Below the pieces are notes generated by a model. It saw only the letters and a program-made list of their open reading frames with translations, ran no database searches and was not told where the DNA came from. Both the position numbers and the translations under genes were made by a program. Of a stretch of 64,000 nt of DNA, positions 1 through 49,974 are shown piece after piece. The DNA comes from a virus: IMG/VR virus record IMGVR_UViG_3300027917_000039. One strand, given 5' to 3'. Each line of letters starts with the position of its first letter. Position 1 is the first letter of the stretch.

Positions 1-83
1 CCAGGTTGATGTTGTCCGGCGGATCGGCGAACACCATCCTGTACCTATTGGTAGTATACTGTAGAAACTCGGCGAAGTCAACA

Positions 84-329
84 TTAACCAGTTCGATTCG
101 GCTCATCGGGAAGCACCTTCCTCACTACAAACCAGAACTCCGGAACCCACGTACCTTCCTCGAACTCGTCATCAGCCTCGATGAACGGCATACAGACTTG
201 TCCGACCGTGTTGCCAAACCCTTCAGCCTCTCGTGCCAGGGCTTTGAACACTGACATCAGCCCGTTCGCATCAGGCTGCTCTTCAATCCGGGGTATCGCT
301 GGCTGATGCAGCTTGATGTCGTCTTCCAT
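84..329 (-). CDS. hypothetical small acidic protein (start uncertain, alternative start at 257)
   Basis: Minus-strand ORF with stop at 84 and internal Met starts. Its 5' end overlaps the 3' end of the GNAT gene. Confidence 0.3.
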   Translation of the reverse strand: MEDDIKLHQPAIPRIEEQPDANGLMSVFKALAREAEGFGNTVGQVCMPFIEADDEFEEGTWVPEFWFVVRKVLPDEPNRTG

Positions 330-6351: not shown

Positions 6352-6827
6352 TTCGTGCTCACTACCAGCCAGAATCGGCGAGGCTCAAAGTTGAATTTGT
6401 CTGCCACGTTCATTGAATAGCAGTAGCCGCGAGGGTCGTACACGACGTTGCCATCCCATGCAACCATGTGCCCGCGCCCGTTGGTCGTGTTGATCCCTTC
6501 GATCAGTCCGCGACCCCAAGCAAGCTGCCCAAGAAACTTTGCTTGTGGTTCCTTCCACACGCTGACAGGTTTGCAGCTTTCGTGCGGAGAGGCTTTCGGA
6601 TCGAGAGGGAACGGGACGAACGCGGTATGGCAATGCCGAAAGGCTAGGTCGCAAATCTCTTCCATGCTTGGCACTCGCGGTACATCTTTCCATTCTCCCT
6701 CGAACGGTAGGTTTTCCTCAAACTTCCAATGCTTGAAAATCGAATACACCGCAGCAGGTTCGAGGTTCAACACCATCGCGAGCGACGCATACACACAGCC
6801 GTTGGTCTCTTGCAGTTTCAGTTTCAT
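6348..6827 (-). CDS. papain-like cysteine peptidase (C39-like)
   Basis: QETNGCVYASLAMVL gives the catalytic Cys context of C39 peptidases. GHMVAWDGNVVYDP provides the His and Asp/Asn. Confidence 0.5.
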   Translation of the reverse strand: MKLKLQETNGCVYASLAMVLNLEPAAVYSIFKHWKFEENLPFEGEWKDVPRVPSMEEICDLAFRHCHTAFVPFPLDPKASPHESCKPVSVWKEPQAKFLGQLAWGRGLIEGINTTNGRGHMVAWDGNVVYDPRGYCYSMNVADKFNFEPRRFWLVVSTK

Positions 6828-7501
6828 TGTCCTGTCTCCATGTGTCCGTAGTAGCCCTCAGCCTTGCACACGTCGCAGGTGTACGAACTGTCTCGCTCGT
6901 GGCAGGTACAGCGGGGCGTCATCTGCCCTATCAGGGTTGAGACCACGTTGTCGTAAGGATGCCGTGGAAGCTGGCAATGACCCGCCCGGTTCCAGGGGCG
7001 AGGGATCAGGAACGCCTGCCCGCCAGCCTCGCGAAACTCATCCACGTTCTTGTCTCGGTCGTCGATTAGGATCGCGCCCGGACCGGCGAACACACTCTTG
7101 TCCGCACCGATGAAGAACTTCCTGATCATGTGTCGGAAGTTGGATTTGATCCAATCGAACTTTCCAGCCACACACTCGCTACTGAGGGTCGGGCTAGTGG
7201 CGAAGTAGACATCGCCGACCGATTCCAAGACTTGCAGAAACTGAGGGGCGAGTGGGTAGCACCGGAGGCTTCGCCAGAACTCGTACCCCAGACCGTCCCA
7301 GAAGGTGGTAGCCGAGATAGCTTCCAGCCCTCTATTCTGTCGAACCAAGTTGGTAGCACCAAGAACATCCCAGCCGAATCCGATCGGATAGAACTGCTCG
7401 CCTTCGATCTCGGCTTCATGGAACGCCATCGCGGGCATCACGAAGTCGGTAATGACACCGTCAAGGTCAACAAATATCTTCGGCTTCGTCTTCAAACTCA
7501 T
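6824..7501 (-). CDS. HAD-superfamily 5'(3')-deoxyribonucleotidase-like phosphatase
   Basis: IFVDLDGVITDF (DxDxV/T motif I), ATSPT (motif II), K motif and ILIDDRD (motif IV). The C-terminus carries a Cys/His cluster CTCHERDSSYTCDVC. Confidence 0.55.
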   Translation of the reverse strand: MSLKTKPKIFVDLDGVITDFVMPAMAFHEAEIEGEQFYPIGFGWDVLGATNLVRQNRGLEAISATTFWDGLGYEFWRSLRCYPLAPQFLQVLESVGDVYFATSPTLSSECVAGKFDWIKSNFRHMIRKFFIGADKSVFAGPGAILIDDRDKNVDEFREAGGQAFLIPRPWNRAGHCQLPRHPYDNVVSTLIGQMTPRCTCHERDSSYTCDVCKAEGYYGHMETGQ

Positions 7502-9829: not shown

Positions 9830-9936
9830 TAGGATCTCCAGTGTGCGTGTGTGTTTAGTTATCAGGAGTCAGCGGGTCTGCAAACACCGCCTCGCCGCAT
9901 TGCAGTACGACCGGGCTGACTTGCCCGCTCCCGAAG

Positions 9937-10008
9937 CTGTGGAGGCTGGACTCGAACCAGCAACAGTCCGGTTAACAGCCGGATACTCTACCATTGAGTT
10001 ACTCCACA
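9937..10008 (-). tRNA. tRNA-Asn (anticodon GTT)
   Basis: Hand-folded cloverleaf: acceptor TGTGGAG/CTCCACA, D-arm ACTC-AATGGTA-GAGT, anticodon arm TCCGG-CTGTTAA-CCGGA, T-arm GCTGG-TTCGAGT-CCAGC, discriminator G, U8 A14 G18G19 U33 A37 present. No encoded CCA. Confidence 0.85.
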
Positions 10009-10351: not shown

Positions 10352-10380
10352 AGTCTACCCCACAACCAGGGTCAGGTCAA
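10352..10380 (-). promoter_or_regulatory. phage early promoter copy 2: TTGACC-N17-GGGTAGACT
   Basis: Minus-strand read CCTTGACC-TGACCCTGGTTGTGGGG-TAGACT-TAATAGTGAAAGGGTTGACG-ATG. Confidence 0.5.
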
Positions 10381-15295: not shown

Positions 15296-15324
15296 AGTCT
15301 AACTCACAGATCGCTCATAGTCAA
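15296..15324 (-). promoter_or_regulatory. phage early promoter copy 3: TTGACT-N17-TAGACT
   Basis: Minus-strand read GTGTTGACT-ATGAGCGATCTGTGAGT-TAGACT-TTTACTGGAGGGACA-ATG. The -35 lies within the 3' end of the upstream gene. Confidence 0.45.
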
Positions 15325-15972
15325 CACAGTTTCTCCGAGATAGTACACGTATGGCATCACGAAGCGGTAGCGATGCCGCGTGATGATGCGCTCGAACTGA
15401 GGGTCCAACCCTGGCCACTTCACTTCGTTGTCCGTATCAGGGTCGTAGAACAGAACGAAATCGTGACGGGGTTCGAGATGGTAGTCGAACGTGAACTCAT
15501 CGCCGTCGTCCAGCGTCTTGACGAACGGAAACAGCATCCCGTGCATCGGACCGTTGATGATCGGGTAGAAGACGTTGCCGTCCATCGCCATCAGCATGTC
15601 GACAGTTATCCTGGTTCCCTGACGAATTGCGTCGTACTGTGCAGTGAAGCGAGCCGACAGGTTGTCGTAGGTATAAAGTTTCTGAACGGCACCCCACACA
15701 GCATAGATCGGCAGTTCCCGACACTGCATGATCGGAGTCTCGTTCAGTTGCTGTGCCATCGCAATCATCGAGGGCATTAGGTGCATGTCCACAATCTCTT
15801 CCAACGACGGCAATTCAACATTGTCCGCTATCATGCACGAGCAGTAGAAATGGTTGTGGAACGGTTTTCGGGAGTCCCATTGCTCCGGGTCCGCCGGTCG
15901 AATCTCACTTGTCACCTCGTTACATAGCGAGGCGAACCCCTCCAAGAAGGCTAATTTCAAAGTGTCGATCAT
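15304..15972 (-). CDS. hypothetical protein
   Basis: 222-aa ORF with no recognised motif. Confidence 0.45.
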   Translation of the reverse strand: MIDTLKLAFLEGFASLCNEVTSEIRPADPEQWDSRKPFHNHFYCSCMIADNVELPSLEEIVDMHLMPSMIAMAQQLNETPIMQCRELPIYAVWGAVQKLYTYDNLSARFTAQYDAIRQGTRITVDMLMAMDGNVFYPIINGPMHGMLFPFVKTLDDGDEFTFDYHLEPRHDFVLFYDPDTDNEVKWPGLDPQFERIITRHRYRFVMPYVYYLGETVLTMSDL

Positions 15973-16702
15973 TGAAGAATCTCCTGGTTCGAGTGCGTAA
16001 ATGGTAACGACCAGACAGGTCGTACGGCGTGGGAACGATCACGTCGGCTGGCTCTGGTCTCAGCAGCCTTTTGTCCACCGCAATCTTCAGAACAATCGTC
16101 ACAGGTGTGAAGTAAGTGCTCCCTTCTACCGATCCCCATAGTGTACCTGCGTACCACCCACTGGCGTCGAGGATCGGTCCGCCGGAGTCTCCGCTCCGGG
16201 CTTGCGCGCCATCTACTGAGTTCCACTTGTAGCCGCCACTACCCCAACGCTTCGGTGAGAGCGTGCCCCAAGACTGTTTGAAGATTCCGTATCCGTAGCC
16301 GTTCACTGACAACTCGGCTTTTGACTCCCGCTCGAACCCCATGCGACTGAACACGAGAGGCTTGGTTGTGCGTGGGTCGTTCTCCAGCTTAATGAATGCC
16401 AAGTCATGCTCTTTGTCGGTGTGGACGACATCGCCTTTGATCACTTCCCACGACGGGAACAGAATCTCCACAGTGCGGCTCTGGCGATCCTTCACAACAT
16501 GGGCGGCAGTCACGATCAGTTGCTGCCCAAGGTACGCGCCGCTGCCTGCGCTTCGGGCTCCCTCTCCGCCTTTGTCTTTCACATGCACACGCACACACGC
16601 CGCCGGAGGGACCGACAGGTGGGGCTGCTCAATCGGCTCGCTCGCTATCGACGGCAGGCACAACACGAATCCCAGGATTGTGGCGGTCAACAGACTCCGC
16701 AT
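15920..16702 (-). CDS. secreted trypsin-like (S1) serine protease
   Basis: Signal peptide MRSLLTATILGFVLCLPSIASEP. Catalytic triad contexts TAAHVV (His), DLAFIKL (Asp), GDSGGPI (Ser). Confidence 0.65.
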   Translation of the reverse strand: MRSLLTATILGFVLCLPSIASEPIEQPHLSVPPAACVRVHVKDKGGEGARSAGSGAYLGQQLIVTAAHVVKDRQSRTVEILFPSWEVIKGDVVHTDKEHDLAFIKLENDPRTTKPLVFSRMGFERESKAELSVNGYGYGIFKQSWGTLSPKRWGSGGYKWNSVDGAQARSGDSGGPILDASGWYAGTLWGSVEGSTYFTPVTIVLKIAVDKRLLRPEPADVIVPTPYDLSGRYHLRTRTRRFFNDRHFEISLLGGVRLAM

Positions 16703-17373: not shown

Positions 17374-17402
17374 AGTCTACCACACAGACTGGCTGAAGTC
17401 AA
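17374..17402 (-). promoter_or_regulatory. phage early promoter copy 4: TTGACT-N17-TGGTAGACT
   Basis: Minus-strand read TTTCGACTTGACT-TCAGCCAGTCTGTGTGG-TAGACT-TTAGT-ATG. Confidence 0.55.
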
Positions 17403-17505: not shown

Positions 17506-18774
17506 CTAGATAGAAATGTCGTCCATGTCAACGAGCCGATAACGTCTCGGACCCTTCAGTTCGTAGTCACAGCGTAGCTTCACAGGAAGCCGCCATGTGA
17601 TGCCATACTTCTTGTTGACACCGTGAATGAGTTGGGACGGCTCAGTGAACCCGCCCAGCGAATTGTACGAGTACGCATCGCTTGCTGGCCACGCTCCGTT
17701 GATGAGCATTTCACCGTTCATCTCTGTTGTGCTGCCAGGGCGATGGAAGTGACCGCAGCAGTAATACCGCACGGGCACGCCCTGCCTGACATTCTCCAGC
17801 GCCATCATTCGGTGACGCCGCTTCTCCAGTCCGTACCAGGGAATGCCCAGGCTGGACCGAACATCATCGCCGTGGAAGATGTGGAAACCCACGCCGTCGA
17901 TGTCTACGTTGCAAGAGAAGGCGTTGGGGATGCAGAAGTTGATGTTGGGGATGTCTCTGCAATACATCCGAGCCGTCGTGGCAATCAGGTAGTCCCAGTT
18001 GTCGTGGGCACCGTGGTAATCCTTCTTGTTGCTCCGGCGACCGTGGTTGCCCGGCACGCAGACCACATTGATCTGTTCAAAGTACGGGGCAAGATCGCGG
18101 AACATCAGGGCTTGCAACTGCCCGATCGCGTGGCAGTTCTTGAAGCAGTTGCGGAAGTAGGACCGCTGTGCTGCCCCGTGAATCTCACCGCTCGTGTGGT
18201 CGCCGTAGGACAGCACGGTGAGTGAGGGGAACCGGAACTGCGGAGCCAGCGTCTGCTGGGTCCACTTGAGCGTCACGTCGATCAGCCGCTCGGCACGCGC
18301 CATCGCGATGGGGAAGTTGTACATCTCCAACCCACCAGTATCATCGTGCGTGATTACTTGATCGAAGTGACCGTCGGACAGGTGCATGACAAGGTGCTCG
18401 GACATCGTGTCGTCGCCTGGGACGAAGTTCTTGCGAGCGGCTGGCAAAGCTGGAATCGGTTTGATTCGCTCTTCCATCTCATCTTCGATCGCCTTGAACA
18501 AGCCGTGCGTCTTCGCTGCTTGCTGCAACTGACGCTTGGCTAGGTTCCGCTCTTCGCGAAGATGCGCGACTTCGGCTTGCAGCGAGAAGATTTGTCGGTC
18601 TTCATCGCTCACCTCGCACGGGGCTTTCACGTCCCGATGGACCCGCCCACACGCGATGTCGCTGATAACAGAGCGGCTGACTCCAAACTTCTCGCCGATC
18701 TGTTTCTGTGTCAATTCCTTTCGAGCGAGCGCGTCCTTGATGTGCCCGACTTGATCCTTTGCCAGCTTGGTCAT
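17506..18774 (-). CDS. HTH domain fused to calcineurin-like metallophosphoesterase
   Basis: N-terminal HTH LTQKQIGEKFGVSRSVISDIACGR, a coiled-coil linker, then phosphoesterase motifs HLSDGHFD, GDH, GNHGRR, HIFHGDD, GHFH. Confidence 0.6.
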   Translation of the reverse strand: MTKLAKDQVGHIKDALARKELTQKQIGEKFGVSRSVISDIACGRVHRDVKAPCEVSDEDRQIFSLQAEVAHLREERNLAKRQLQQAAKTHGLFKAIEDEMEERIKPIPALPAARKNFVPGDDTMSEHLVMHLSDGHFDQVITHDDTGGLEMYNFPIAMARAERLIDVTLKWTQQTLAPQFRFPSLTVLSYGDHTSGEIHGAAQRSYFRNCFKNCHAIGQLQALMFRDLAPYFEQINVVCVPGNHGRRSNKKDYHGAHDNWDYLIATTARMYCRDIPNINFCIPNAFSCNVDIDGVGFHIFHGDDVRSSLGIPWYGLEKRRHRMMALENVRQGVPVRYYCCGHFHRPGSTTEMNGEMLINGAWPASDAYSYNSLGGFTEPSQLIHGVNKKYGITWRLPVKLRCDYELKGPRRYRLVDMDDISI

Positions 18775-20646
18775 TTAGTCCTCTCCAATGCTCACGGTGT
18801 TGTAGAATGGATGGTTCTCGATGATATAGTCGATAGCATCCTTGAAGTACGTGCCCTCCAGCGTGAAGAGCCTTTCCTTGAGATTGATGTCGGCGAGGTG
18901 TGCTCTCTGCCGTTTCAACTCATCAGGGTTCGTAATCAACTCGACCGACTTGGCAATCAATGCCTGCGGGTCTTCAAAGTTGTTGTACGACATATCAACG
19001 CGGTCGTTGAGGTACATTCCCGCGCGATTGTAGAAGCGATCACCCACCAGCGTCAGGAATGGAATGCCCATCCACAGGGACTCCACTAGGACGTTGTAGC
19101 AACCGAACGGGAATGAGTTGAGAGCAAAGTCATGCTTCTCAGCCTCCCGCATGTAGTCGACATACTCCCACTGCGAATGAACGTACGCATTGGGAAGCAG
19201 GCGGGTCACTTCTCGAATGAACGGAGGCAACGCAGCGTAGCGGTTCAGTCCGGGCGACCCGAAGAGATGAAACTCGTGGGTCGTTTCGGGGTTGACTTGC
19301 AACGCACGCTTGTTGATCTCAGCCAACATGGTGAGCAGCGTGTGGTTGTACTTGTCCGGTCCCCAGACACAGTTGATCCGGACGACGCCGTCGTCAACGT
19401 AGTTGTGCTGTCGCTCGACACTTGGCCACGCAGGCTCTTGTGCCAAGCCGGGGATGAGCACCCGTGTCTCTGAGTAGGCGGCATCGGCATCCTTCTCCAC
19501 CTGTCCGCAGATGAAGTAGTCAATCTCGTTGCCGTCACCCGTCGTGTCTGGGTGCCCGTATCCCACGACTTGTATCGGAGCCATGCGAAAGTTCGACATC
19601 CAGATCGACTCGTCCGACATTCCGATGTCGGGGAAGTAGACCAGTTGGTAGTCGTTCTTCAGCACTTCGTCTGGAATCCGCAACTGCCCTTCACGGGTGA
19701 AGTAGGCGTGGTGAACTTCATCGAAGTAATCTGTCACCATCGTTGACGGCACCAAGTCTGGCGGGTTTGTCCAGATCAGGGTCAACTTGTAGTGCTCGCG
19801 AAGCTGTTCGAGCAACGGACCCTGCGACTTGTACACCGCGTGGTTGCGATGCCACCGCTCGGTGACGATCGCGATCGACTTCGGGTTGGGGTTATTCTCG
19901 AACGGCGGTGCAGTGCCCTTGGATTTGATCCCCTTGTTGATGATGCTCTTTACTCGCCGGACGGCGTTCTGATTGTGGTACGTGCATCCAAAGTACAGAC
20001 CGGACAGGCTCTGATGCGGCGGGACAAACCGCTCGTCCATCAGTTCCAAGTGCCGATAGAAATTCTTCTGGATGTTGAACGTCGGTGACGACAGACCGAG
20101 CATGTAGCTCATGTACCAGAGCGAAGCGAGAGCGGGATCGCAGTCGAACAGTTTCTTCTGGTCGATTTGAATCTCGCAACGCGGGTTGAGCAGTGACATC
20201 ATCTTGCCGACGTTGTTCTCGATGCCAAGCGAGGCGTCGAGTGCGGCATCGGTAGTCCGCATCGAACTGGACGCGAAGATGCTCTGTAAGACGTGCCCCA
20301 ACTGGATCAACTGAATTGCCGATTTTCCAACCGGGTAGAAATCTACGCGCGAGACAGCCATCGAATACGTGAAGCAAAAGTCATTCAGCTTCACGATCGC
20401 AGAGTTGCCGAATCGCATGTAGTGGTGCATCTCGAAGTAATGCAAGAAGTGAACGAAGTCATCCCACAGAGTGACATCGAGGTCCGCGATCTTGCGCATC
20501 GCCTTCCTGACATCGAGGGTCGGGATGTCTTGCTGCGGGTCTTTTGGCCACGCAACACAACACCCGTCGACCTTCTTGGACTTCACTACCTGCCGCTTGC
20601 GGCGGTTACGAGCTAACTCTTTCTCACGCTTCTTCGTTCTTGCCAA
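18775..20646 (-). CDS. GT41-family (OGT-like) glycosyltransferase
   Basis: RMAPIQVVGYGHPDTTGDGNEIDYFICGQVE...YSETRVLIP aligns with the OGT catalytic-region signature RPAPIQ..LGYPGTSG..MDYIITD...YSEKL. Has a basic N-terminal tail. Confidence 0.6.
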   Translation of the reverse strand: MARTKKREKELARNRRKRQVVKSKKVDGCCVAWPKDPQQDIPTLDVRKAMRKIADLDVTLWDDFVHFLHYFEMHHYMRFGNSAIVKLNDFCFTYSMAVSRVDFYPVGKSAIQLIQLGHVLQSIFASSSMRTTDAALDASLGIENNVGKMMSLLNPRCEIQIDQKKLFDCDPALASLWYMSYMLGLSSPTFNIQKNFYRHLELMDERFVPPHQSLSGLYFGCTYHNQNAVRRVKSIINKGIKSKGTAPPFENNPNPKSIAIVTERWHRNHAVYKSQGPLLEQLREHYKLTLIWTNPPDLVPSTMVTDYFDEVHHAYFTREGQLRIPDEVLKNDYQLVYFPDIGMSDESIWMSNFRMAPIQVVGYGHPDTTGDGNEIDYFICGQVEKDADAAYSETRVLIPGLAQEPAWPSVERQHNYVDDGVVRINCVWGPDKYNHTLLTMLAEINKRALQVNPETTHEFHLFGSPGLNRYAALPPFIREVTRLLPNAYVHSQWEYVDYMREAEKHDFALNSFPFGCYNVLVESLWMGIPFLTLVGDRFYNRAGMYLNDRVDMSYNNFEDPQALIAKSVELITNPDELKRQRAHLADINLKERLFTLEGTYFKDAIDYIIENHPFYNTVSIGED

Positions 20647-21808
20647 GAGGCACCTCCACGAGTTTGCCGAACTCGAATTTCAAGAGACCTTTGCATTCAA
20701 TCCCCAGCTTGATGATTTCGTCTCGGATGTCGAGCGATCGCCAGGACGTGGTGCATATGATATAGTCAACGGGGAATTTCTTCAACGCTGTCGGAGAGAC
20801 CATCGGAATCTTCGTGCCGGGCACGCAGAATCCCCATTTCTCTTCGTGGCTGTCAACCACGAGAGTGGTATCCGGCAGCTTGAACTTGTTGATGAACATG
20901 GCGGACTTTCCACCGCCGCCCCACAGCGCGACCCTGTCGGTCGTGTTCACCAACCAGCTACGCACTTCGTCGATCTTGGCTTGAGCCCGCTTGTACTTGA
21001 ACAGGATTTGATCAACCGTCAAACCCTTGGTCCGCTTGGGCTCCAGCTTCGCCATCGCGACGATCACTTCACCACCATACGTGGTGGCTGCGTGAGAGAA
21101 CTCAATCCCGCACGCGCGGAACAGCTTCATCATGCTGAGCACAGTGAAGTGTTGTGGGTGCTCGTACGTCCAGTCTTCGATGCGGCATTTCTTCAATGCC
21201 TCTTGACAGCACGGGACTTCGATGAGCAGGATTGTGTCTTGGGCTCGCTTCTCAGCCATCCGGACAATCGGCTCGATGAACTCGCGCGGATTCTCCATGT
21301 GCTCCAGAAGGTGCCGCATGATGATCACCAACTTACCGCCGTCCAGCGGGATGTGCTGCTTCGGGTCGAAGTGCTCGCGGTAGTATTGGATGCCCAACTC
21401 TTCCGCTCGCTCGACTGCCTCGCACGGGTCGATCGCGATCTTGATCGCGTCGGTGTTGATCCGGTTGAGGAACTCGCAGTCGCCCGCACCGACTTCGATG
21501 ATCAATTCAACGTCTTCGATTTCTTCGACTTGCTTGACCGTTACCTCAACGTGCCTCTGCCAGCCGCTCCCACTATTGTACATGCGACAGCCAGCGGCTG
21601 CGTACGATACGTGGTTCGGATTGAAGTCGATGTTGTGGACGTGCCCGCAGTTTCGGCAGATCGCCAATCGGATTCGGTGGCGTTCCAACGATGCAGACTG
21701 CAACGGGTCGCGCTGCAATGCCACAAGAGACATCGGCTGGCTGCCCATGTCGAACAACACTTCTTGGTCTGTCGATTGACAGGCAGGGCAACATTGGATA
21801 TAACTCAT
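20624..21808 (-). CDS. SAM-dependent C-methyltransferase, TcaB9/TylCIII-like (Zn-ribbon + class I MTase + C-terminal domain)
   Basis: N-terminal CPAC...CRNC zinc ribbon, motif I LIIEVGAGDCEFL, about 390 aa with a three-domain architecture typical of sugar C-methyltransferases. Confidence 0.55.
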   Translation of the reverse strand: MSYIQCCPACQSTDQEVLFDMGSQPMSLVALQRDPLQSASLERHRIRLAICRNCGHVHNIDFNPNHVSYAAAGCRMYNSGSGWQRHVEVTVKQVEEIEDVELIIEVGAGDCEFLNRINTDAIKIAIDPCEAVERAEELGIQYYREHFDPKQHIPLDGGKLVIIMRHLLEHMENPREFIEPIVRMAEKRAQDTILLIEVPCCQEALKKCRIEDWTYEHPQHFTVLSMMKLFRACGIEFSHAATTYGGEVIVAMAKLEPKRTKGLTVDQILFKYKRAQAKIDEVRSWLVNTTDRVALWGGGGKSAMFINKFKLPDTTLVVDSHEEKWGFCVPGTKIPMVSPTALKKFPVDYIICTTSWRSLDIRDEIIKLGIECKGLLKFEFGKLVEVPLGKNEEA

Positions 21809-21969
21809 CGCATCTCCCGGTCTTCAAGTTCAGTGTCAACAATCAGGATCGGTCCCTGACTTGTGTCTTGTACTTCGACGATTGCGTGTTGTACGCCGTC
21901 GATCTCGACGACCACCTCACCGTCATCGCGGCAGAGTTCCAGGTCGTCGAGCAGTTCGCTAAGTAGCAT
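21805..21969 (-). CDS. hypothetical small acidic protein
   Basis: Starts MLLSELLDDL, coupled to the methyltransferase start. Confidence 0.35.
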   Translation of the reverse strand: MLLSELLDDLELCRDDGEVVVEIDGVQHAIVEVQDTSQGPILIVDTELEDREMR

Positions 21970-22342
21970 TTTCCAATTCTCCAAATAATGGGATGACGTA
22001 TACGCCGTAGTCTTCGTGATCACACCACTCTTTGATGTCGATCTCATCTTCCGGACCATGCACCAACAGCTTAGGCAACTTCAAACCATCCAAGGCTGAC
22101 ACCAGCCTGCGAACGTAAAAGAAGCCAAGCGACTTCTCATTCAGCTTGACATCGACAAGTTCACCGGCTTCGGTCGCCAGCACCTGGACTTCGATCGCTT
22201 CGATTCCGTACTCCCGATCCGCCTTCACGGTCAGGTTTTCCAGAATCCACTGAATGCCTTCGTTTGCCGGACACGTCCCGACAGTGTACAAGTCGAGACC
22301 TTCGGGGACCGACAACACACCAACCACTCGCGCGTCACTCAT
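21959..22342 (-). CDS. hypothetical protein
   Basis: Starts MSDARVVGV and overlaps the SNF2 gene stop. Confidence 0.4.
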   Translation of the reverse strand: MSDARVVGVLSVPEGLDLYTVGTCPANEGIQWILENLTVKADREYGIEAIEVQVLATEAGELVDVKLNEKSLGFFYVRRLVSALDGLKLPKLLVHGPEDEIDIKEWCDHEDYGVYVIPLFGELENAT

Positions 22343-24257
22343 CGCACATCTCCTGAAATTCACCAAGCGTCATTTGTTCAAGCCGACGGTTGTCACGCAA
22401 CACGCCGAGAACCTTACGGTCAGTACCAAGATGGAACAGGTCGACAATCGTCGCTCCCTTGTTCTCATCCATTCCCGGTCGGTGGATTCGGTCTTCAGCT
22501 TGCGAGCGAGACTCAGGCATGAAATCGTTCGAGTAGAACACCGCCATGCGAGCCTCAGTCAAGGTCAGTCCCATTCCTCCAGACGCCGGGTGCGCTACAA
22601 ACGCCACCCGCTCTTTCGTCATATCTGCCCAGTAGTCAAGGGGCTTGCACTGCTTCGCAGTGATCTTTGTGCCGTCGGCTGGCATCACTTTCCAGCCGCG
22701 ACCGTCAACCTTCACCACGTCCCAATGCTGCTTGTGGCAGAGGCTGATGATTCTGTCTACCGATCCCTGGAAGCCAGCGAAGATCACGAGACGCCCCTGG
22801 TCTTCGTTCTCTTCCAGCAGATCGCGTATAGCCTGATCCTTCGGCGTGTTGATCTGTTTCGTTTCCCGAACCATGTTCGGAACTTCACCCACACCGTCAC
22901 AATAACTGCACGGTCCGAGCCGCTTCTCGTAATGGTCCAGGTCATCTTGAGCGTCTACGTCGACCTTCTCACCATCGAAGTACCAGTCTTCCTTTTGTCC
23001 TTTTCCCTTGCAGACGGGGCACGAGATGGTGGGTTTCTTCTCGTCCTGCTTCTCGCGATACTGGAACCCGTCGCTCAGTTCACGCAGCCACGTCAATCCT
23101 TGAATCGCGGATATGGCGGATTTGGCCAGCGCTTTAGCCACTCGTTTAAGCGTGGATGTGGGTTCAAGTTCGACGACTCGATAGTTCTTGTCCGGTATGT
23201 CGAGGCAGTCTTTCTTCTTGAGGGTGACGACCAAACCTTCGAGTCGATCGTGAAGGAAGGCGACCTCGTTCTTTGAGGGTACGAAGTCGTGGTTTCCTTC
23301 GCCTCCGCCGAACAGAATAGCGTCTTCATCCATGACATGATTCGCATGATCGGCGTACTCACCGCATATATCACATTTGTTCTCGTCATCTCTCCACGTC
23401 TTTCGTTTCCAGAACTCTCCGGCATCGGTCATCTGCTTCTCGAAGATGGCGAGCCGGAACTCAAATGCCTTGTCGCTTCCTTCCTTGATGAAGCCTGGGT
23501 ATGCGATCTCACACTGTGCCCACCAGTCGACGGGCGATTTGGGCGAGGGCGTGCCGGACATGAGAATCACGTATCCATCCCAGCCATGCTCCCTCCGGAT
23601 CGAATCCGCCAGATGGGCAGCCGCGCGGGTCCGCTTGGCGTTCCACGTCTTGAGCCGGGACGACTCGTCGAAGATCACACCAACGGGCGCAGGTCGTCCC
23701 TTCTCCCACTTCTCGATCTCGATCCTCAGACGGTCGTACGTCATGAGGTTGGGCATTACCTTCAAGCCCCATTTGACAAACTCCCGTTCAACTGCGGCGA
23801 GACCTGACTTGGGGGCAACCCACCACCAGTCAGTGACGCCAGACTTTTCCATGAGTTCGATGGCTGCCAGGGTCTTACCGACGCCCATTTCAGCAGCCCA
23901 GATTTGGTAGTGGTAGGTGAGCCCTTGGTCGGCGAGCATCTTCTGGTGGTCGAACAGCGGGCGGGTGTAGCCGAAGTTTCTCAGCGGCTGCTCCCAATTC
24001 TCGTAGGGGTTGCCGCCCTGCATGTAGTCAAGCTGGAAGTTGTTCCGGCAGCAGTCTTCGACCGACCATATCTTTCGGTTGTCATCAGGTATGAAGCCGT
24101 GCCAGCGGGAGCCTCGCATCGCCTTGATCTCACCCTTCAACGCGAACGGTGACTTCAGGAAGTAGATGCGACTGCCGTCACGCTCTATCGTGGCGGGAAC
24201 CTTGAGCAAGGTTCCTTTCTTTGTCTCTGTGATCAGTTTGATTTCTTCAATCGTCAT
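22335..24257 (-). CDS. SNF2/Rad54-family ATPase (helicase-like) with an inserted DnaJ-type zinc finger
   Basis: Walker A AAEMGVGKT, DExx IFDESSRL, SGTP, helicase C GGMGLTLTEARMAVF...QAEDRIHRPGM. Insertions CDICGE...H..H and CPVCKGKG...CSYCDGVG. Confidence 0.8.
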   Translation of the reverse strand: MTIEEIKLITETKKGTLLKVPATIERDGSRIYFLKSPFALKGEIKAMRGSRWHGFIPDDNRKIWSVEDCCRNNFQLDYMQGGNPYENWEQPLRNFGYTRPLFDHQKMLADQGLTYHYQIWAAEMGVGKTLAAIELMEKSGVTDWWWVAPKSGLAAVEREFVKWGLKVMPNLMTYDRLRIEIEKWEKGRPAPVGVIFDESSRLKTWNAKRTRAAAHLADSIRREHGWDGYVILMSGTPSPKSPVDWWAQCEIAYPGFIKEGSDKAFEFRLAIFEKQMTDAGEFWKRKTWRDDENKCDICGEYADHANHVMDEDAILFGGGEGNHDFVPSKNEVAFLHDRLEGLVVTLKKKDCLDIPDKNYRVVELEPTSTLKRVAKALAKSAISAIQGLTWLRELSDGFQYREKQDEKKPTISCPVCKGKGQKEDWYFDGEKVDVDAQDDLDHYEKRLGPCSYCDGVGEVPNMVRETKQINTPKDQAIRDLLEENEDQGRLVIFAGFQGSVDRIISLCHKQHWDVVKVDGRGWKVMPADGTKITAKQCKPLDYWADMTKERVAFVAHPASGGMGLTLTEARMAVFYSNDFMPESRSQAEDRIHRPGMDENKGATIVDLFHLGTDRKVLGVLRDNRRLEQMTLGEFQEMCDE

Positions 24258-24263
24258 ATCTAA

Positions 24264-24292
24264 AGTCTACCACATTATGCTGTGCAAGTCAA
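24264..24292 (-). promoter_or_regulatory. phage early promoter copy 5: TTGACT-N17-TGGTAGACT
   Basis: Minus-strand read GCATTTGACT-TGCACAGCATAATGTGG-TAGACT-TTAGAT-ATG (SNF2 start). Confidence 0.55.
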
Positions 24293-27513: not shown

Positions 27514-30264
27514 ATGCAACGCAACCCTTCTGTTACGTCTGCGTTCCAGACGTACTTTGAGAACGTCCTCAAACAGAACCACAACAATCCGGCGCTTATA
27601 TCCAGGTGGGGCGCCGAACCCGCCCGCTTCGAGACACAGATCATGTGCAAGAAGATGGGCACGCCGATCCCAGATTCACAGAAGTGGACCTGCGATGGCG
27701 AGACGTTCGGACCACAACGCTGGCCATACGACTCTGACACTGAGCCCAACTACAGCGACCCACCCATCCAGTACAACATCGGTGAGAGACTCCTGGCGAT
27801 CGGAACAAGCTGGTGGGATTGGAAGAACAAGCGATCCATCGGGCTAGGCTTCGACTTCGACTCGCTCATCGACCACGATGAGGGCGTCGGTGTCGATCAG
27901 TCTACCATCGCCAAGTTGGACAGACTGGACTTGCCGTGGGTGGAGGTGATCCGCTCGACGCGGGGCAACGGACGACACATCTATATCTGGTTCGATCCAG
28001 ACAACGCCCCGATCGCAAACAACCATCTTGAGCACGCCGCGATCGCTCGCTCATTCCTCCCGCTGCTGGCGACCCACTCAGGACTTGACATCGACACGAG
28101 CGTCGACTGCAAGGGTCTGATCATGTGGATTCACCATGTGAACGCGACGAAGGAAAACCGTGGCTACGAACTCGTCAAACCAGCAACGCAAATTCTGACT
28201 GCCGATCATGTTCCTCCGAACTGGAAGGATCATCTCGAAGTCGTCTCCGGCAGCAGAACCAAAGTGCGCGTCCAAGGATGGACGCCCAATGGTACAACAT
28301 CGGGTGATGAACTCGATGAAATGACCCAGGCGTACTCTCGTACCGAACTGGACGAAGTTCACCTGAAGATTCTGGAAGAACTGGAAGGTACGGGGCACAC
28401 GTCGGTGTGGGTCCACGACCACCATCTGTGGCAAGGTCATACCGGAGCATTGAAGCAGGTGTATGACGATTTCGCCGAACGCGGCACGCCGCTGCGCGGG
28501 CTGTTCGACACGAACTCATCAGATACTGACCCTGGCAAGCCCAACTGCTTCGCGCGACCCAAGCCCGGAGGTGCTTGGGACGTGTATCGTTTCGGTGAAG
28601 GCACGGCAGAGCACCCTCTGTGGGATCAGCAAGGCAAGTGGACCCACATCGGATTCAACACCCAACCCACACTGAAACAGGTATGCTTGGCGAGCGGAGG
28701 CTATGAAGGACCGGACCAACGAAAAGGATTCCTGTTCGACTCAAAGGATGACTTCCTGGCTGCCTTGGAGTTGTTGGGCTCGAAGGTGAAGCTGCCCAAG
28801 AAGGCAGACGGCAGGGAGTTGTCGCTGAGAATGATCGACGGGAGGATCGTGGCGACGGTCGAGAAGAAACGCGGGGATGAGAAAGAAGACTTCCCGCGAT
28901 GGGTGAAGGGCTCCGGCGTCTGGGAGCGACTCATCGACGACGCTGATGAGACTGCTGATACGGAAATGGAGGAAGAGACTCTCTGGTCCGAACTGGACGG
29001 GAAGTTCCGAGCCCTGCGGGTTGCGGGTGTGTGCGGTGGGCAATTCCACTCGTGGGTCATCTACGACAACACTGAGTCGTGGACCACCCACCCTCGCGAG
29101 AATATCAAATCGTATCTCGCCTCCATTGGCTACAAGCAGGCAGATGGGCTGCTTGGAGGCGCCATCTACAAATGCTGGACCCTCGTGAATGAACCGTTTG
29201 GACCTGAGTACCCTGGAGGACGTATGTGGAATCGTGATGCCCCGCAGTTTGTTTACCCACCCGTCGATTTGAAGGAAGGCGAAGAACCGAAACACCCGAC
29301 ATGGAACAGATTGCTTGAGCACTGCGGTGTCGAACTGAACGAATACATCCCAGAGTTGAAATGGTGCAAAGACTGGGGCATCACCACTGGCGGCGATTAC
29401 CTGCTCGCGTGGATTGCCTGCATGTTTCAGAACCCTTGGTGCAAGCTGCCGTACCTCTTCATGTACGGTCCGCAGAACAGCGGGAAGTCATCGTTCCATG
29501 AGGCTATCGGCTTCTTGCTGACAAAGGGAGTGGAGAAAGCCGACCGGGCGTTGACATCGAAGCAAGGCTACAACGGCGAACTGGAGGGAGCGATCCTGGC
29601 AGTTGTCGATGAAGTTGACATCACGAAGGCAGGGTCGGAAGTCTACAACAAGCTGAAGGAATGGGTGACGGCGGGGACGATCTCGATACACGCCAAGTAC
29701 AAGCAAGTTGTGGACATGCCCTCTACTCTGCACTTCGTACAGATGTCCAACGACCGCCGCAGCTTGCCAGTGTTCCCAGGCGACACGCGGATCACGGCGA
29801 TGAACGTGCCGTTCCTTGAAGCCGAGATTCCCCGTGATGAGTTCCATCGCAGGCTCAAGGAAGAGGCGTCTCACTTCATGCGGTCGGTAGTGGACTACCA
29901 TATGCCGCCGCCGATCGGACGCCTCGCGTTACCGATCATCGAGACGCAGGGCAAGATCGACGCCGCTGACGCGAACACTGACGATCTGGAATTGTTCCTT
30001 GAAGAGAAGTGCTTCCCGGTTCCGGGGGCGTTTATCAAGATCACCGACTTCATGGAGAAGCTGCACGCCTACTTGCCAGAGCATCTTATCTCAGATTACC
30101 CCAGGCGGGTGGTGGAGCCAAGACTGAAGGAACGCTACGTTGTTGGAATGGGATCAGGAAAGAACAACCAAGTATTGATCGGAAACCTATCATTTAACCC
30201 TAACGCGAAGCCCAGCACACCGTACACAAGAGAGGGTGCGAAGGTACGAAAGGAAGAACTATGA
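27514..30264 (+). CDS. bifunctional AEP primase-polymerase / D5-like SF3 helicase
   Basis: AEP motifs GLGFDFDS (DxD) and TRGNGRHIYIWF (sGxGxH). SF3 Walker A YLFMYGPQNSGKSSF and Walker B LAVVDEVD. Confidence 0.8.
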   Translation: MQRNPSVTSAFQTYFENVLKQNHNNPALISRWGAEPARFETQIMCKKMGTPIPDSQKWTCDGETFGPQRWPYDSDTEPNYSDPPIQYNIGERLLAIGTSWWDWKNKRSIGLGFDFDSLIDHDEGVGVDQSTIAKLDRLDLPWVEVIRSTRGNGRHIYIWFDPDNAPIANNHLEHAAIARSFLPLLATHSGLDIDTSVDCKGLIMWIHHVNATKENRGYELVKPATQILTADHVPPNWKDHLEVVSGSRTKVRVQGWTPNGTTSGDELDEMTQAYSRTELDEVHLKILEELEGTGHTSVWVHDHHLWQGHTGALKQVYDDFAERGTPLRGLFDTNSSDTDPGKPNCFARPKPGGAWDVYRFGEGTAEHPLWDQQGKWTHIGFNTQPTLKQVCLASGGYEGPDQRKGFLFDSKDDFLAALELLGSKVKLPKKADGRELSLRMIDGRIVATVEKKRGDEKEDFPRWVKGSGVWERLIDDADETADTEMEEETLWSELDGKFRALRVAGVCGGQFHSWVIYDNTESWTTHPRENIKSYLASIGYKQADGLLGGAIYKCWTLVNEPFGPEYPGGRMWNRDAPQFVYPPVDLKEGEEPKHPTWNRLLEHCGVELNEYIPELKWCKDWGITTGGDYLLAWIACMFQNPWCKLPYLFMYGPQNSGKSSFHEAIGFLLTKGVEKADRALTSKQGYNGELEGAILAVVDEVDITKAGSEVYNKLKEWVTAGTISIHAKYKQVVDMPSTLHFVQMSNDRRSLPVFPGDTRITAMNVPFLEAEIPRDEFHRRLKEEASHFMRSVVDYHMPPPIGRLALPIIETQGKIDAADANTDDLELFLEEKCFPVPGAFIKITDFMEKLHAYLPEHLISDYPRRVVEPRLKERYVVGMGSGKNNQVLIGNLSFNPNAKPSTPYTREGAKVRKEEL

Positions 30265-30899
30265 ACGACATGAAACCAACGAATCCGAAAGACGCGATAG
30301 GCTCGACGAAAGTCCCGTACGATCTCGTCCCTGAGAGTGCGATCGCCGAACTGGCGACGGGCTTCTTGGAAGGGGCATTGAAGTACGGAAGGTACAACTG
30401 GCGTGCGAAAGGCGTGAGGGCGTCGATCTATTACTCGGCGATGCGACGCCACATGGCGAAGTGGTACAACGGAGAGGATGCCGATGAGAAAACGCGGGTC
30501 AAACATCTCGCCTCTGTCATGGCGTGCTGTGCGATCATCCTAGACGCGGATTTGTGTGGAAAGCTGAATGATGATCGCCCACCAAAGGCTCCGGTCAGCA
30601 AGAGGATCGACGAACTGTTTGAGGTGATTGCCCATCTGAAAGGACTGTTCAAGGACGAGCACCCACACCAGTACACGATCGCCGACAGCGAAGAGTTCGG
30701 TCCCGACTGCCCTGGAGGGTGCGGGGCGACCGGGCTCGACAGATGTGACGACTGTGGGTTCACGCCAGAGGTGCCTATTGTCTTCGAGATCAAGGACGCC
30801 GAACGCTCGAAAGAGTTCGATGAGTTGGTCGCCAAGCTAATGAACGACCATCGCGAGGCTCTTGGCATTCACCCGCGAGCAGTCAAGGGGGAAGCATGA
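30261..30899 (+). CDS. dATP/dGTP pyrophosphohydrolase-like (MazG-related N-domain family)
   Basis: KVPYDLVPESAIAELATGFLEGALKYGRYNWRAKG...RRHMAKWYNGEDADEKTRVKHLASVMACCAIIL matches the conserved K.PYDLiP...A.KYG..NW..G...RH...GED.D..HLA pattern. Confidence 0.45.
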   Translation: MNDMKPTNPKDAIGSTKVPYDLVPESAIAELATGFLEGALKYGRYNWRAKGVRASIYYSAMRRHMAKWYNGEDADEKTRVKHLASVMACCAIILDADLCGKLNDDRPPKAPVSKRIDELFEVIAHLKGLFKDEHPHQYTIADSEEFGPDCPGGCGATGLDRCDDCGFTPEVPIVFEIKDAERSKEFDELVAKLMNDHREALGIHPRAVKGEA

Positions 30900-48289: not shown

Positions 48290-48554
48290 CTTGCTGCTGC
48301 CTCACTTTGCAGTACATCGCGTTCTCATTCAGTTGGTGAATCTGCTCGGTGTTTGCCTTGATGACTTCAGTGTTGGTGGCTATGACCGCAGCCTGCTCTT
48401 TCACCATGTTCGATAGAACTTCGGTGTTGAAGTCTTCCAACTTTTGGACTCTCTCCACTAGGTTCTCTTCGCGCTTCCAGTCGCGCCAAATGAAGAACAA
48501 CACCACTCCTACAAGCGGTCCGAAATCTTTCAAGAGCGATGTTAATTCCATCAT
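48282..48554 (-). CDS. small single-TM coiled-coil protein
   Basis: TM segment GPLVGVVLFFIW followed by a coiled coil. Confidence 0.4.
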   Translation of the reverse strand: MMELTSLLKDFGPLVGVVLFFIWRDWKREENLVERVQKLEDFNTEVLSNMVKEQAAVIATNTEVIKANTEQIHQLNENAMYCKVRQQQDG

Positions 48555-49756: not shown

Positions 49757-49765
49757 CCTTCACCT

Positions 49766-49972
49766 CTATTCAGGCTGAGTTGACCCGTGCCCGTATCGCT
49801 GTTGCAAAGCGGTGACGATGAGCCCACGATTTTCTTGAGTCGCAGCCTGAAGCGTGTTTAGGCGCATTTCCAAGGCGTTGAGTTTGTCAAACAACTCTTT
49901 CATCACTGCCCCGTGATGAACGAGTGTCTCAGCAATCGCTATTGCGTTTTGTTCATTGATTTCTGCCGTCAT
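49766..49972 (-). CDS. hypothetical small protein
   Basis: 68-aa helical ORF. Confidence 0.35.
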   Translation of the reverse strand: MTAEINEQNAIAIAETLVHHGAVMKELFDKLNALEMRLNTLQAATQENRGLIVTALQQRYGHGSTQPE

Positions 49973-49974
49973 GT

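Follow-up and report, generated by a model that had tools for sequence, protein, structure and literature searches.

A GT41-family glycosyltransferase and a sugar methyltransferase form an obligate two-gene cassette in a lineage of uncultured tailed phages

What would a bacterial virus do with a glycosyltransferase of a protein-modifying family encoded next to a sugar methyltransferase? This question is raised by the IMG/VR virus record IMGVR_UViG_3300027917_000039, of which we analyzed a stretch of 64,000 nucleotides, hereafter called the window. The window comes from a tailed phage, with large terminase, portal, major head protein and tape measure among its genes, and its replication half encodes PolA, an SNF2 helicase, DNA ligase, ParB and a DUF5906 primase. 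A preliminary description, made from the sequence alone, had pointed to an adjacent glycosyltransferase (GT) and methyltransferase (MT) in the latter half. Both open reading frames (ORFs) were confirmed on the minus strand, the GT at 18775-20646 (623 aa, TTG start) and the MT at 20624-21808 (394 aa), and the motif FRMAPIQVVGYGHPDTTGDGNEIDYFICGQVEKDADAAYSETRVLIPG quoted for the GT is present in its translation. Both families are large and under purifying selection, with at least 194 GT and at least 116 MT sequences. On balance we consider it probable, though only just, that the two genes encode a cytoplasmic two-enzyme system that glycosylates protein with a methylated sugar.

The GT consists of a basic N-terminal tail (residues 2-25, ~20572-20643), an all-alpha domain (residues ~42-245, 19912-20523) and the two lobes of a GT-B fold (residues ~246-623, 18778-19911). 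The Pfam model Glyco_transf_41 (PF13844) gave no match to the window GT at E<=0.1, and a precomputed match to it is carried by about 30 of the 120 listed members of the GT family. The NCBIfam model NF049992, which describes UDP-glucose:protein N-beta-glucosyltransferases, matched residues 117-597 at 9e-26; the score of 90.6 bits, set against an equivalog cut-off of 1000 bits, indicates a distant relative of the N-glycosyltransferases (NGTs) rather than an equivalog. When the single sequence was searched against PDB, the ApNGT/HMW1C-like enzyme (4.7e-21) and AaNGT (~1e-21) matched over nearly the whole chain, whereas XcOGT and SPINDLY matched over ~100 C-terminal residues only. A family profile built from 26 members reached 2e-40 against ApNGT and covered residues 95-612 of ApNGT and 72-598 of AaNGT, the all-alpha domain included; against SPINDLY (5e-14) and the OGTs (1e-8 to 1e-10) it aligned over ~90 residues of the C-lobe. 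Foldseek comparison of an AlphaFold2 model (pLDDT 88.6, pTM 0.87) gave TM scores of 0.72-0.77 over ~620-640 aligned columns for AaNGT and ApNGT, and of 0.45-0.54 (probability 1.00) for OGT, SPY and XcOGT. Tetratricopeptide (TPR) repeats were not found in the GT with Pfam, and its N-terminal domain superposes on the all-alpha domain of NGTs. From the NCBIfam NGT model, the PDB sequence and profile searches, the fold search and a profile-profile comparison, the GT is therefore assigned to family GT41 and, within it, to the HMW1C/NGT structural branch and not to the TPR-bearing OGT branch. The earlier label of an OGT-like GT41 enzyme thus stood as to the family, and its OGT-like part was rejected because the GT has no TPR domain and matches NGTs over the full length.

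As in NGTs, the body of the GT is acidic (pI 5.3-6.9). The poly-basic N-terminal tail (MARTKKREKELARNRRKRQVVKSKK) recurs with 7-15 Lys or Arg residues in 23 of 26 close family members, where the composition is kept and not the sequence. Neither the deep-branching phage GTs nor the bacterial cousins have it, it lies outside the regions aligned with NGTs, and it occurs where the GT body is most acidic (net charge -9 to -25). The tail possibly serves nucleic-acid or membrane tethering, packaging or charge compensation.

To see which functional residues are kept, we mapped them from printed alignments in the native numbering of ApNGT (3q3e index minus 11). The donor site is preserved: Lys441 corresponds to K432 of the GT, His277 to H269, Asn521 to N518, Asp525 to E522 and the G-H-P loop to G364-H365-P366, and none of them varies among the 26 aligned members. 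The acceptor site, in contrast, is remodelled. AaNGT binds the Ser/Thr at +2/+3 of the sequon through Arg177, Asp215 and His214, and its R177A and D215A mutants are inactive (PMC10507012). A HMMER profile alignment and an independent MAFFT alignment (37 clade members with AaNGT and ApNGT) agree that in the phage GTs Arg177 is replaced by G/A/T/S, His214 by S/T/A/Q and Asp215 by G/S/C/P/N/A/V/L; none of the three is kept in any clade member, three bacterial cousins included. The all-alpha domain has invariants of its own instead, namely H118, N145, N154, N195 and H199, with D204 and R206 nearly invariant. Since the sequon reader is replaced by family-specific invariant polar residues, the GT probably does not recognise N-X-S/T. 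We therefore rejected the idea of a true sequon-acting NGT, given the absence of Arg177, His214 and Asp215 and sequons that are neither strongly enriched nor preferentially conserved. Donor choice may differ as well. The position of ApHMW1C Thr438 is an invariant Gly in the GT family, and Gln469 corresponds to Ser464; in Yersinia pestis HmwC, which uses UDP-GlcNAc, the Thr438 equivalent is Ser (PMC11329713). Given these two differences, the GT may use a donor sugar other than Glc or GlcNAc.

The MT (METHYLTRANSFERASE) had been described as having the Zn-ribbon/SAM architecture of nucleoside diphosphate (NDP)-sugar C-methyltransferases, and Pfam, profile and fold matches all support this architecture. 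Methyltransf_23 (32 bits), Methyltransf_14 (29.3 bits, cut-off 23.5) and Methyltransf_13 (27.1 bits, cut-off 31.3) occur in the expected order. Among the hidden Markov models that the preliminary description had named, Methyltransf_14 and the sulfotransferase model PF09037 thus matched, Methyltransf_13 stayed just under its cut-off, and Glyco_transf_41 gave no match. The MT has three domains: a Zn ribbon, a class I S-adenosylmethionine (SAM) domain and an NDP-binding C-terminal domain. Its full-length relatives in PDB are sugar C-3 methyltransferases only, with MtmC at 2.3e-13 by single sequence; the family profile matched MtmC (1.1e-24), TcaB9 (2.5e-15) and KijD1 (7e-15), all over the full length. 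When the AlphaFold2 model (pLDDT 92.2) was compared by Foldseek, the top 18 matches were MtmC, TcaB9 and KijD1 entries (1e-23 to 4e-18), and generic methyltransferases followed from 1e-8. The TM score to the sugar C-3 methyltransferases is only ~0.5, though all three domains align, which probably reflects the domain orientation in the model. The zinc site comprises Cys7 and Cys10 (family consensus CPAC) and the invariant Cys51 and Cys54, and the SAM motif is E105-x-G107-x-G109. His181, Glu224 and His225 of TcaB9, the residues mutated in PDB 4e2w, 4e2y and 4e2z, correspond to H170 (invariant), E216 (at least 90% conserved) and H217 (invariant). The C-terminal nucleotide-binding motifs WGGGGKS and DSxxxKxGxxxPGT are conserved. 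Judged by its sequence, the MT is built to methylate a nucleotide-linked sugar.

How tightly the two genes belong together was assessed in loci sampled in three independent ways: via the GT, via the MT and via the exonuclease gene that follows the GT. Starting from the GT, the MT lies directly upstream in every one of 31 phage loci, the most distant at 31% GT identity. Starting from the MT, a GT41 gene lies directly downstream in 29 of 29 viral loci. For the exonuclease, the marker of a far larger lineage, the best 80 of 185 viral loci were taken; 78 were informative and two more were not. Both genes were present in 34 loci, neither in 44 and only one in none, and GT41 came right after the MT in all 34 pair-bearing loci. 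In the pair-less loci the gap between the SNF2 helicase and exonuclease genes is typically 50-1,700 bp, with a median of 1.47 kb, too small for the pair. Together with the counts, this indicates an accessory two-gene cassette that is gained or lost as a block at one site. The MT-GT pair is thus not a core replication function.

In the roughly 40 phage contigs with these genes the two are invariably neighbours. In the window they overlap by 23 nt. A GGAGG Shine-Dalgarno sequence (20657-20653), a 6-nt spacer and the TTG start of the GT (20646-20644) form a translational-coupling junction at 20644-20657 on the minus strand, so that both the GGAGG and the TTG lie within the 3' end of the MT gene (TGA stop at 20626-20624). 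Overlaps of the same kind join the MT end to the GT start at loci L001, L016, L017, L030 and L031. The GT N-terminus is conserved across homologues, often from non-ATG starts, and this conservation together with the GGAGG 6 nt upstream supports the TTG start.

The GT clade extends over at least 37 viral contigs, and the cassette changes more quickly than the genes around it: in the most distant loci GT and MT share ~31% identity, where PolA, exonuclease and SNF2 helicase still share 50-60%. A second GT41 gene (Pfam 41 bits) follows the first at L029, L031, L057, L072 and L103/L104, which fits extension of the glycan in some relatives. Genes inserted beside the pair at divergent loci encode a metallophosphoesterase, an RNA ligase, a C92 amidase, the second GT41 or a SPASM protein, and no sugar-nucleotide enzymes were found among them. 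In pair-less relatives, the slot between the SNF2 helicase and exonuclease genes often holds orphan DNA methyltransferases of N6/N4, C5 or D12-like type (L123/L124 6112-8923, L127/L136 8119-8961, L149 5418-6846, L092 8300-8977). This slot seems to attract accessory modification genes.

Cellular relatives of the MT bear on the nature of the acceptor. The MT family profile was searched against 1.84 billion representative proteins, and long proteins among the best 150 were inspected. Six of the eight long proteins examined carry TPR repeats, Glyco_transf_41 and Methyltransf_23/14 in one chain. With the phage MT profile these fusions reach 290-345 bits, and MtmC reaches 90 bits. About 19 full-length homologues are found on bacterial contigs of up to 250 kb (P0232 is a 5'-truncated copy), and in one source the entry is called 'O-linked N-acetylglucosamine transferase (SPINDLY family)/SAM-dependent methyltransferase'. 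The GT41 domain of the fusion P0250 is homologous to the lobes of the phage GT (hhalign, 98.3% over 344 columns). The chromosomal context of the fusions is conserved, with an aminotransferase, a STAS protein, the fusion, Asd and later GreA in order, and no sugar-nucleotide pathway was found beside them. The fusion proteins are ~1300 aa long and are encoded directly downstream of the STAS-domain protein (L160 6177-10055, JBAIGT010000058.1; L008).

TPR-GT41 enzymes are protein O-glycosyltransferases whose TPR arms are protein-binding modules. The bacterial TPR-GT41-MT fusions, uncharacterised as far as the searched literature shows, are probable protein-modifying enzymes. Every characterised enzyme with the fold of the phage GT modifies proteins (PMC10507012, PMC11329713), and in enterobacterial flagellin glycosylation islands nearly all GT41 enzymes carry a SAM methyltransferase domain (PMC4875605). 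Our main ground for preferring a protein as the acceptor of the phage pair is that the closest cellular relatives of the MT are fused to TPR-GT41. Bacterial cousins of the GT, encoded as stand-alone genes and ~30% identical, occur in a Gallionella metagenome-assembled genome (MAG) and in two cyanobacterial MAGs (L037 9854-11626, L038 4447-6228, L039 3238-5076). Two of these cousins adjoin genes for secreted signal-peptide proteins, which may be their substrates.

The preliminary description had the two genes transcribed together with those for the SNF2 ATPase and a helix-turn-helix (HTH) metallophosphatase, and this is very probable as a prediction. A promoter-like motif, TTGAC(T/C)-N17-TA(G/T)ACT, usually with TGTGG before the -10 element, occurs in six copies against 0.17 expected by chance when matches with at most one mismatch are counted. 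All six are on the minus strand of the replication half (53-24292), mostly just upstream of gene starts, at 53-81, 2886-2914, 10352-10380, 15296-15324, 17374-17402 and 24264-24292. The repeated motif is probably an early/middle promoter of the phage that divides the region into transcription units. The copy at 24264-24292 (TTGACT-N17-TAGACT, TGTGG before -10) is immediately upstream of the SNF2 gene and is the predicted start of the unit of the cassette; the next one, at 17374-17402, would start the following unit. The copies at 24292-24264 and 17402-17374 bracket exactly the genes for the SNF2 helicase, two small ORFs, the MT, the GT and the exonuclease, and no minus-strand terminator-like site was found between 24260 and 17500. 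Co-transcription of this block is likely for these two reasons.

The neighbours named earlier were likewise found as described. The SNF2-family helicase (22335-24257, minus strand) has Pfam matches to Helicase_C and SNF2-rel_dom, matches PHROG 62 (DNA helicase) at 1e-54 and shows 46-77% identity across the phage lineage. Between it and the MT gene lie two small minus-strand ORFs of 135 and 84 aa (21805-22366), which have no Pfam match and are conserved in part, in close relatives only. The exonuclease is an HTH and metallophosphoesterase protein (17506-18774, minus strand; PHROG 284 at 6.8e-40, HTH_3, Metallophos_2); its start abuts the GT stop, and 185 relatives were found in viral contigs. 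The Stf0 sulfotransferase, also named earlier, matched PF09037 at 3.9e-14.

The mechanism we propose starts from the two enzyme families with their conserved catalytic residues, the obligate pairing, the cassette behaviour and the bacterial fusion of the MT to a TPR-GT41 enzyme. The MT would methylate a sugar while this is still nucleotide-activated, and the sugar nucleotide would be drawn from the host pool, since the phage encodes no sugar-nucleotide pathway. The GT would move the sugar from the nucleotide donor onto a macromolecule, most likely a protein, or several, present in the infected cell. For this it would use a remodelled acceptor site, in which the Arg177/His214/Asp215 reader is replaced by other invariant polar residues. 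The modified residue could be Asn, Ser or Thr, the target a protein of phage or host, and some relatives would extend the glycan with their second GT41. The cassette would be expressed with the replication genes from a phage promoter. Methylation before transfer, the methylated sugar-nucleotide donor and the protein acceptor are what we infer here. Within this model, a non-virion target, such as a regulatory or replication protein of host or phage, is somewhat more likely than the virion proteins, owing to the transcription unit, the accessory and fast-evolving nature of the cassette and the housekeeping context of the bacterial fusions.

Several observations weigh against this mechanism. Tyr76 and Tyr222 of TcaB9 are not conserved in the MT and align to C74 and T214; Y77 and Y215 lie one to three positions off, so that the outcome depends on the alignment. 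Because these two residues are not conserved, C-methylation of a 4-keto sugar is uncertain, and O-methylation or methylation after transfer is possible. Neither a 4,6-dehydratase nor another source of a 4-keto sugar nucleotide was found in the ~75 kb sampled (the window and ~12 kb of flanking sequence), and dehydratase-type substrate enzymes were not found at divergent loci or beside the bacterial fusions either. On the side of the GT, the His277 equivalent is Thr in deep-branching phage GTs, the peptide-binding residues of NGTs are absent, so that protein binding is deduced from the fold and the fusions, and the GTs of the sub-clade of the window carry the poly-basic tail. The cassette belongs to a replication module, relatives that have no pair carry DNA methyltransferases in the same slot, and deep-branching relatives place the cassette between a phosphoesterase and an RNA ligase.

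A narrower form of the preferred mechanism, in which the GT glycosylates a non-structural protein of host or phage in early to mid infection and so serves host takeover or counter-defence, is a tentative possibility. The predicted co-transcription of the cassette with replication genes from an early-region promoter motif and its gain as an accessory unit would suit such a role, and GT and MT evolve faster than their replication neighbours, as expected for genes that interact with the host. The bacterial fusions likewise stand in a housekeeping context, beside a STAS-domain regulator and not an adhesin. The HMW1C-like enzyme HmwC O-GlcNAcylates several cytoplasmic proteins (PMC11329713), and the phage system would be analogous to this O-GlcNAcylation of many cytoplasmic proteins in Yersinia and to the ADP-ribosylation carried out by T4 Alt/Mod. 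Against this, we found in the searched literature no phage-encoded protein glycosyltransferase that modifies proteins of the host, and the timing is deduced from gene position only.

The preliminary description had proposed the S/T/N-rich beta-helix proteins of the virion (48551-53544) as targets, and had combined GT, MT and sulfotransferase into a toolkit for glycosylation, methylation and sulfation. In its most specific form this means N-glycosylation of tail proteins at sequons with a methylated and sulfated glycan, as in some mycobacteriophages, and we consider it unlikely. The GT does have the NGT fold, NGTs hyperglycosylate beta-helical adhesins, and the phage carries its own tRNA-Asn and encodes the Stf0 sulfotransferase. 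Counting N-x-S/T (x not P) against the expectation from composition, the densest sequons of the window are in a 619-aa protein (49975-51834; 22 against 13.8 expected, z 2.5). This excess is mild; z is 1.7-1.8 at most in other tail proteins, and composition accounts for most of the sequon signal. The sequon-reading Arg177 and Asp215 are replaced in every clade member. In the orthologues at locus L040 (68% identity) sequons are half as many, and sequon Asn are no better conserved than other Asn (10/22 vs 16/31; 5/10 vs 14/27). Three further viral contigs, absent from the GT and MT search results, encode relatives of the 619-aa protein. The phage at L040 shares the tail block at 54-69% identity but the GT at 38%, so that the two do not co-evolve. 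Genes credited with the glycosylation of mycobacteriophage virions lie in the structural operon, and the cassette lies in a replication unit. These tests thus did not support the proposed virion targets.

The toolkit did not hold together either. The sulfotransferase gene is 16 kb away from the obligate MT-GT pair and several promoter-like sites downstream of it, and no close relative of it was found in the IMG/VR viral contigs, a weak negative since that search reaches close relatives only; we rejected it as a third member of the pathway. A GNAT acetyltransferase (283-798), a 332-aa protein (795-1793) and the Stf0-type sulfotransferase (1790-2755) are encoded consecutively on the minus strand; gene callers start the last at 2608 (272 aa). 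This trio may be a separate small modification module. The three S/T/N-rich proteins (48551-53544, minus strand; L040 4295-8388) lie in a low-GC block, with 0.49-0.50 against ~0.55 elsewhere. At L040 this block keeps the same order at 54-69% identity, yet PolA is 53% and the GT 38% identical, which indicates a horizontally exchanged host-recognition module.

Could the cassette instead put a methylated sugar on nucleic acid, either on phage DNA as protection from restriction or on RNA such as tRNA? The setting is suggestive, with the cassette between a helicase and a nuclease in a DNA replication unit. The slot of pair-less relatives often holds N6/N4 (118-124 bits) and C5 (103 bits) DNA methyltransferases, and within the regions fetched a DNA methyltransferase is present in 15 of 35 pair-less and in none of 35 pair-bearing loci. 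Most GTs of the sub-clade of the window have the poly-basic N-terminal tail, deep-branching MT-GT pairs lie between a metallophosphoesterase and an RNA ligase, and the nucleotide-pool genes of the phage include an NT5C nucleotidase, a MazZ-like domain, MazG and dCMP deaminase. Phage glycosyltransferases that act on DNA are well known. We nevertheless consider this reading improbable. All known DNA O-glycosylation needs a hydroxymethylase, a hydroxylase or a TET-like enzyme, and the ~75 kb yielded no ThyA-like hydroxymethylase, no hydroxylase, no TET/JBP dioxygenase and no other enzyme that would make an acceptor base (Pfam on 30 early ORFs and precomputed Pfam for the flanking 12 kb). To our knowledge no GT41 enzyme acts on nucleic acid, and a survey paper on DNA glycosyltransferases mentions neither GT41 nor OGT. 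The body of the GT is acidic, deep-branching GTs are without the basic tail, the MT keeps a nucleotide-sugar-binding architecture, and its cellular relatives are fused to TPR protein-binding domains.

The mutual exclusion of cassette and DNA methyltransferase also proved weaker than it first looks. The phage has an N6/N4 DNA methylase of its own just off the left edge of the window (1-106, minus strand, continuing past the edge; L153 10693-11463), which breaks the exclusion genome-wide; we therefore set it aside as an argument for DNA modification, as it holds at the slot only and is a contrast between clades. Beyond this methylase, the flanking sequence encodes Zn_ribbon_8 and DUF2061 proteins, a class II ribonucleotide reductase, dCMP deaminase and MazG. 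The order in deep-branching loci (L025, L029, L031, L034, L157-L159) is a small metallophosphoesterase, MT, GT41, in some cases a second GT41 or a SPASM protein, an OB-domain RNA ligase and the exonuclease. The pair-less locus L092 (4833-8306) has Ro60/TROVE, metallophosphoesterase and RNA ligase together, an RNA-repair-like set. From gene neighbourhood, the deep-branch arrangement is a lead towards RNA. That the cassette glycosylates nucleic acid as a counter-defence, with a methylated sugar on DNA or on tRNA in the RNA-repair-like set of the deep branch, seems quite improbable. Since no hydroxylated base is made, a linkage to DNA would possibly be N-linked to an exocyclic amine, by analogy with the amide-nitrogen chemistry of NGTs.

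Very doubtful is an effect on the cell envelope, in which the pair would alter host nucleotide sugars or a glycan or lipid acceptor and so change the cell surface, for example for superinfection exclusion, with no protein target: the MT seems made for nucleotide sugars, these would have to come from host pools because the phage lacks a pathway for them, the Stf0-type carbohydrate sulfotransferase is also encoded, and GT-B enzymes whose N-termini are basic and amphipathic can bind membranes peripherally, but the GT keeps the large all-alpha acceptor domain typical of protein-modifying NGTs, no membrane segments and no flippase or Gtr-type partners were found, and no integrase was seen, surface-conversion cassettes being typical of temperate phages and lying beside integrases.

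Returning to the preferred reading, a cytoplasmic protein-glycosylating pair, we compared the cassette with known systems. The HMW1C-like NGTs (ApNGT, AaNGT and H. influenzae HMW1C) share with the phage GT an all-alpha N-terminal domain followed by GT-B, the lack of TPR, a length of ~620 aa and the same donor-site residues (Asp525 replaced by Glu). Unlike them, the phage GT, ~20% identical, is without the sequon reader and an adhesin partner, and has its own all-alpha invariants, an obligate MT and, in part of the clade, the poly-basic tail. Y. pestis HmwC is an example of the HMW1C fold with another donor (UDP-GlcNAc), another acceptor (Ser in soluble proteins) and a regulatory role (PMC11329713); the proposed non-adhesin, regulatory action on soluble proteins is the point of likeness. 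HmwC is 41% identical to ApHMW1C, keeps the Asp215 equivalent and has no MT partner, whereas the phage GT is without that Asp215 equivalent. The TPR-GT41-MT fusions (P0250 and its ~19 homologues) have the same MT subfamily (Zn ribbon, Methyltransf_23, Methyltransf_14) and a GT41 domain, again with no adjacent sugar-nucleotide pathway; in the bacteria both parts are joined in a single chain that carries an OGT-type TPR arm, whereas the phage pair is split over two genes and its GT has the NGT-type all-alpha domain. For the flagellin-island fusions the likeness is that GT41 is joined to an MT domain.

TcaB9, MtmC and KijD1, from antibiotic deoxysugar pathways, resemble the phage MT in the three domains, the Cys4 zinc site, the SAM motif, His181/Glu224-His225 and the nucleotide-binding motifs. 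The phage MT differs in being ~20% identical, in not keeping Tyr76/Tyr222, in having no dehydratase, aminotransferase or reductase neighbours, and in its GT41 partner in place of a natural-product GT1. Phage DNA glycosyltransferases (T4 alpha/beta-GT, 5hmC/5hoC glycosyl/arabinosyl transferases) are likewise phage-encoded and lie among replication and nucleotide genes. Both these and the virion GTs of mycobacteriophages belong to other GT families, none of them GT41, and the DNA enzymes have a hydroxymethylase, hydroxylase or MT-TET partner, which is absent here.

The search for relatives in described phages was largely negative. GenBank phage records (50,697 genomes) contain no detectable relative of the GT or of the PolA of this lineage, and a search of GenBank phages at the DNA level gave no match for the region. 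The MT has there a weak partial match only, to one 735-kb uncultured phage sequence under two accessions. The best match to the GT in a viral structure library is a generic GT-B at TM 0.36, and no phage GT41/NGT enzyme is described in the searched literature. GT41 protein glycosyltransferases, sugar methyltransferases and GT41-MT fusions are thus known already; what is new is an NGT-shaped enzyme with a remodelled acceptor site and an obligate MT, as a mobile cassette of a large uncultured phage lineage.

GT41 comprises soluble protein glycosyltransferases such as OGT, SPINDLY and the NGTs of glyco-engineering, and in the searched literature none is described in a bacterial virus. Should a protein target be true, phages would possess tools for cytoplasmic protein glycosylation, for host takeover or virion maturation, and would offer soluble glycosyltransferases whose acceptor and donor specificities are new. 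Through the phage pair, the widespread, uncharacterised bacterial TPR-GT41-MT fusions also gain a first functional handle. A nucleic-acid target, if true, would mean a new chemistry of genome protection and the first GT41 known to act on nucleic acid.

Some further features of the phage were noted. Its host is possibly a member of the Planctomycetota, judging from two MAG labels and relatives of the fusion proteins. Among its nucleotide-pool enzymes are an N-terminal domain of MazZ-type dATP/dGTP diphosphohydrolases (PF18909, 7e-26; 30261-30899, plus strand) and an NT5C-type deoxynucleotidase (6824-7501, minus strand). MazZ-type enzymes go with 2-aminoadenine (Z) genomes; no PurZ-like gene was detected in the phage, and the 332-aa ORF at 795-1793 has no Pfam match. 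The single tRNA of the window is a tRNA-Asn (GTT) at 9936-10008 on the minus strand, and several tail proteins are Asn-rich (6.5-9.1%). tRNA-Asn is one of the queuosine-modified group. The minus-strand gene at 15920-16702 encodes a trypsin-like serine protease whose N-terminus has a signal-like hydrophobic segment, and such a gene is present also at L004, L109, L124, L127 and L149. This protease is conserved across the phage lineage in the replication region, often near the slot between the SNF2 helicase and exonuclease genes.

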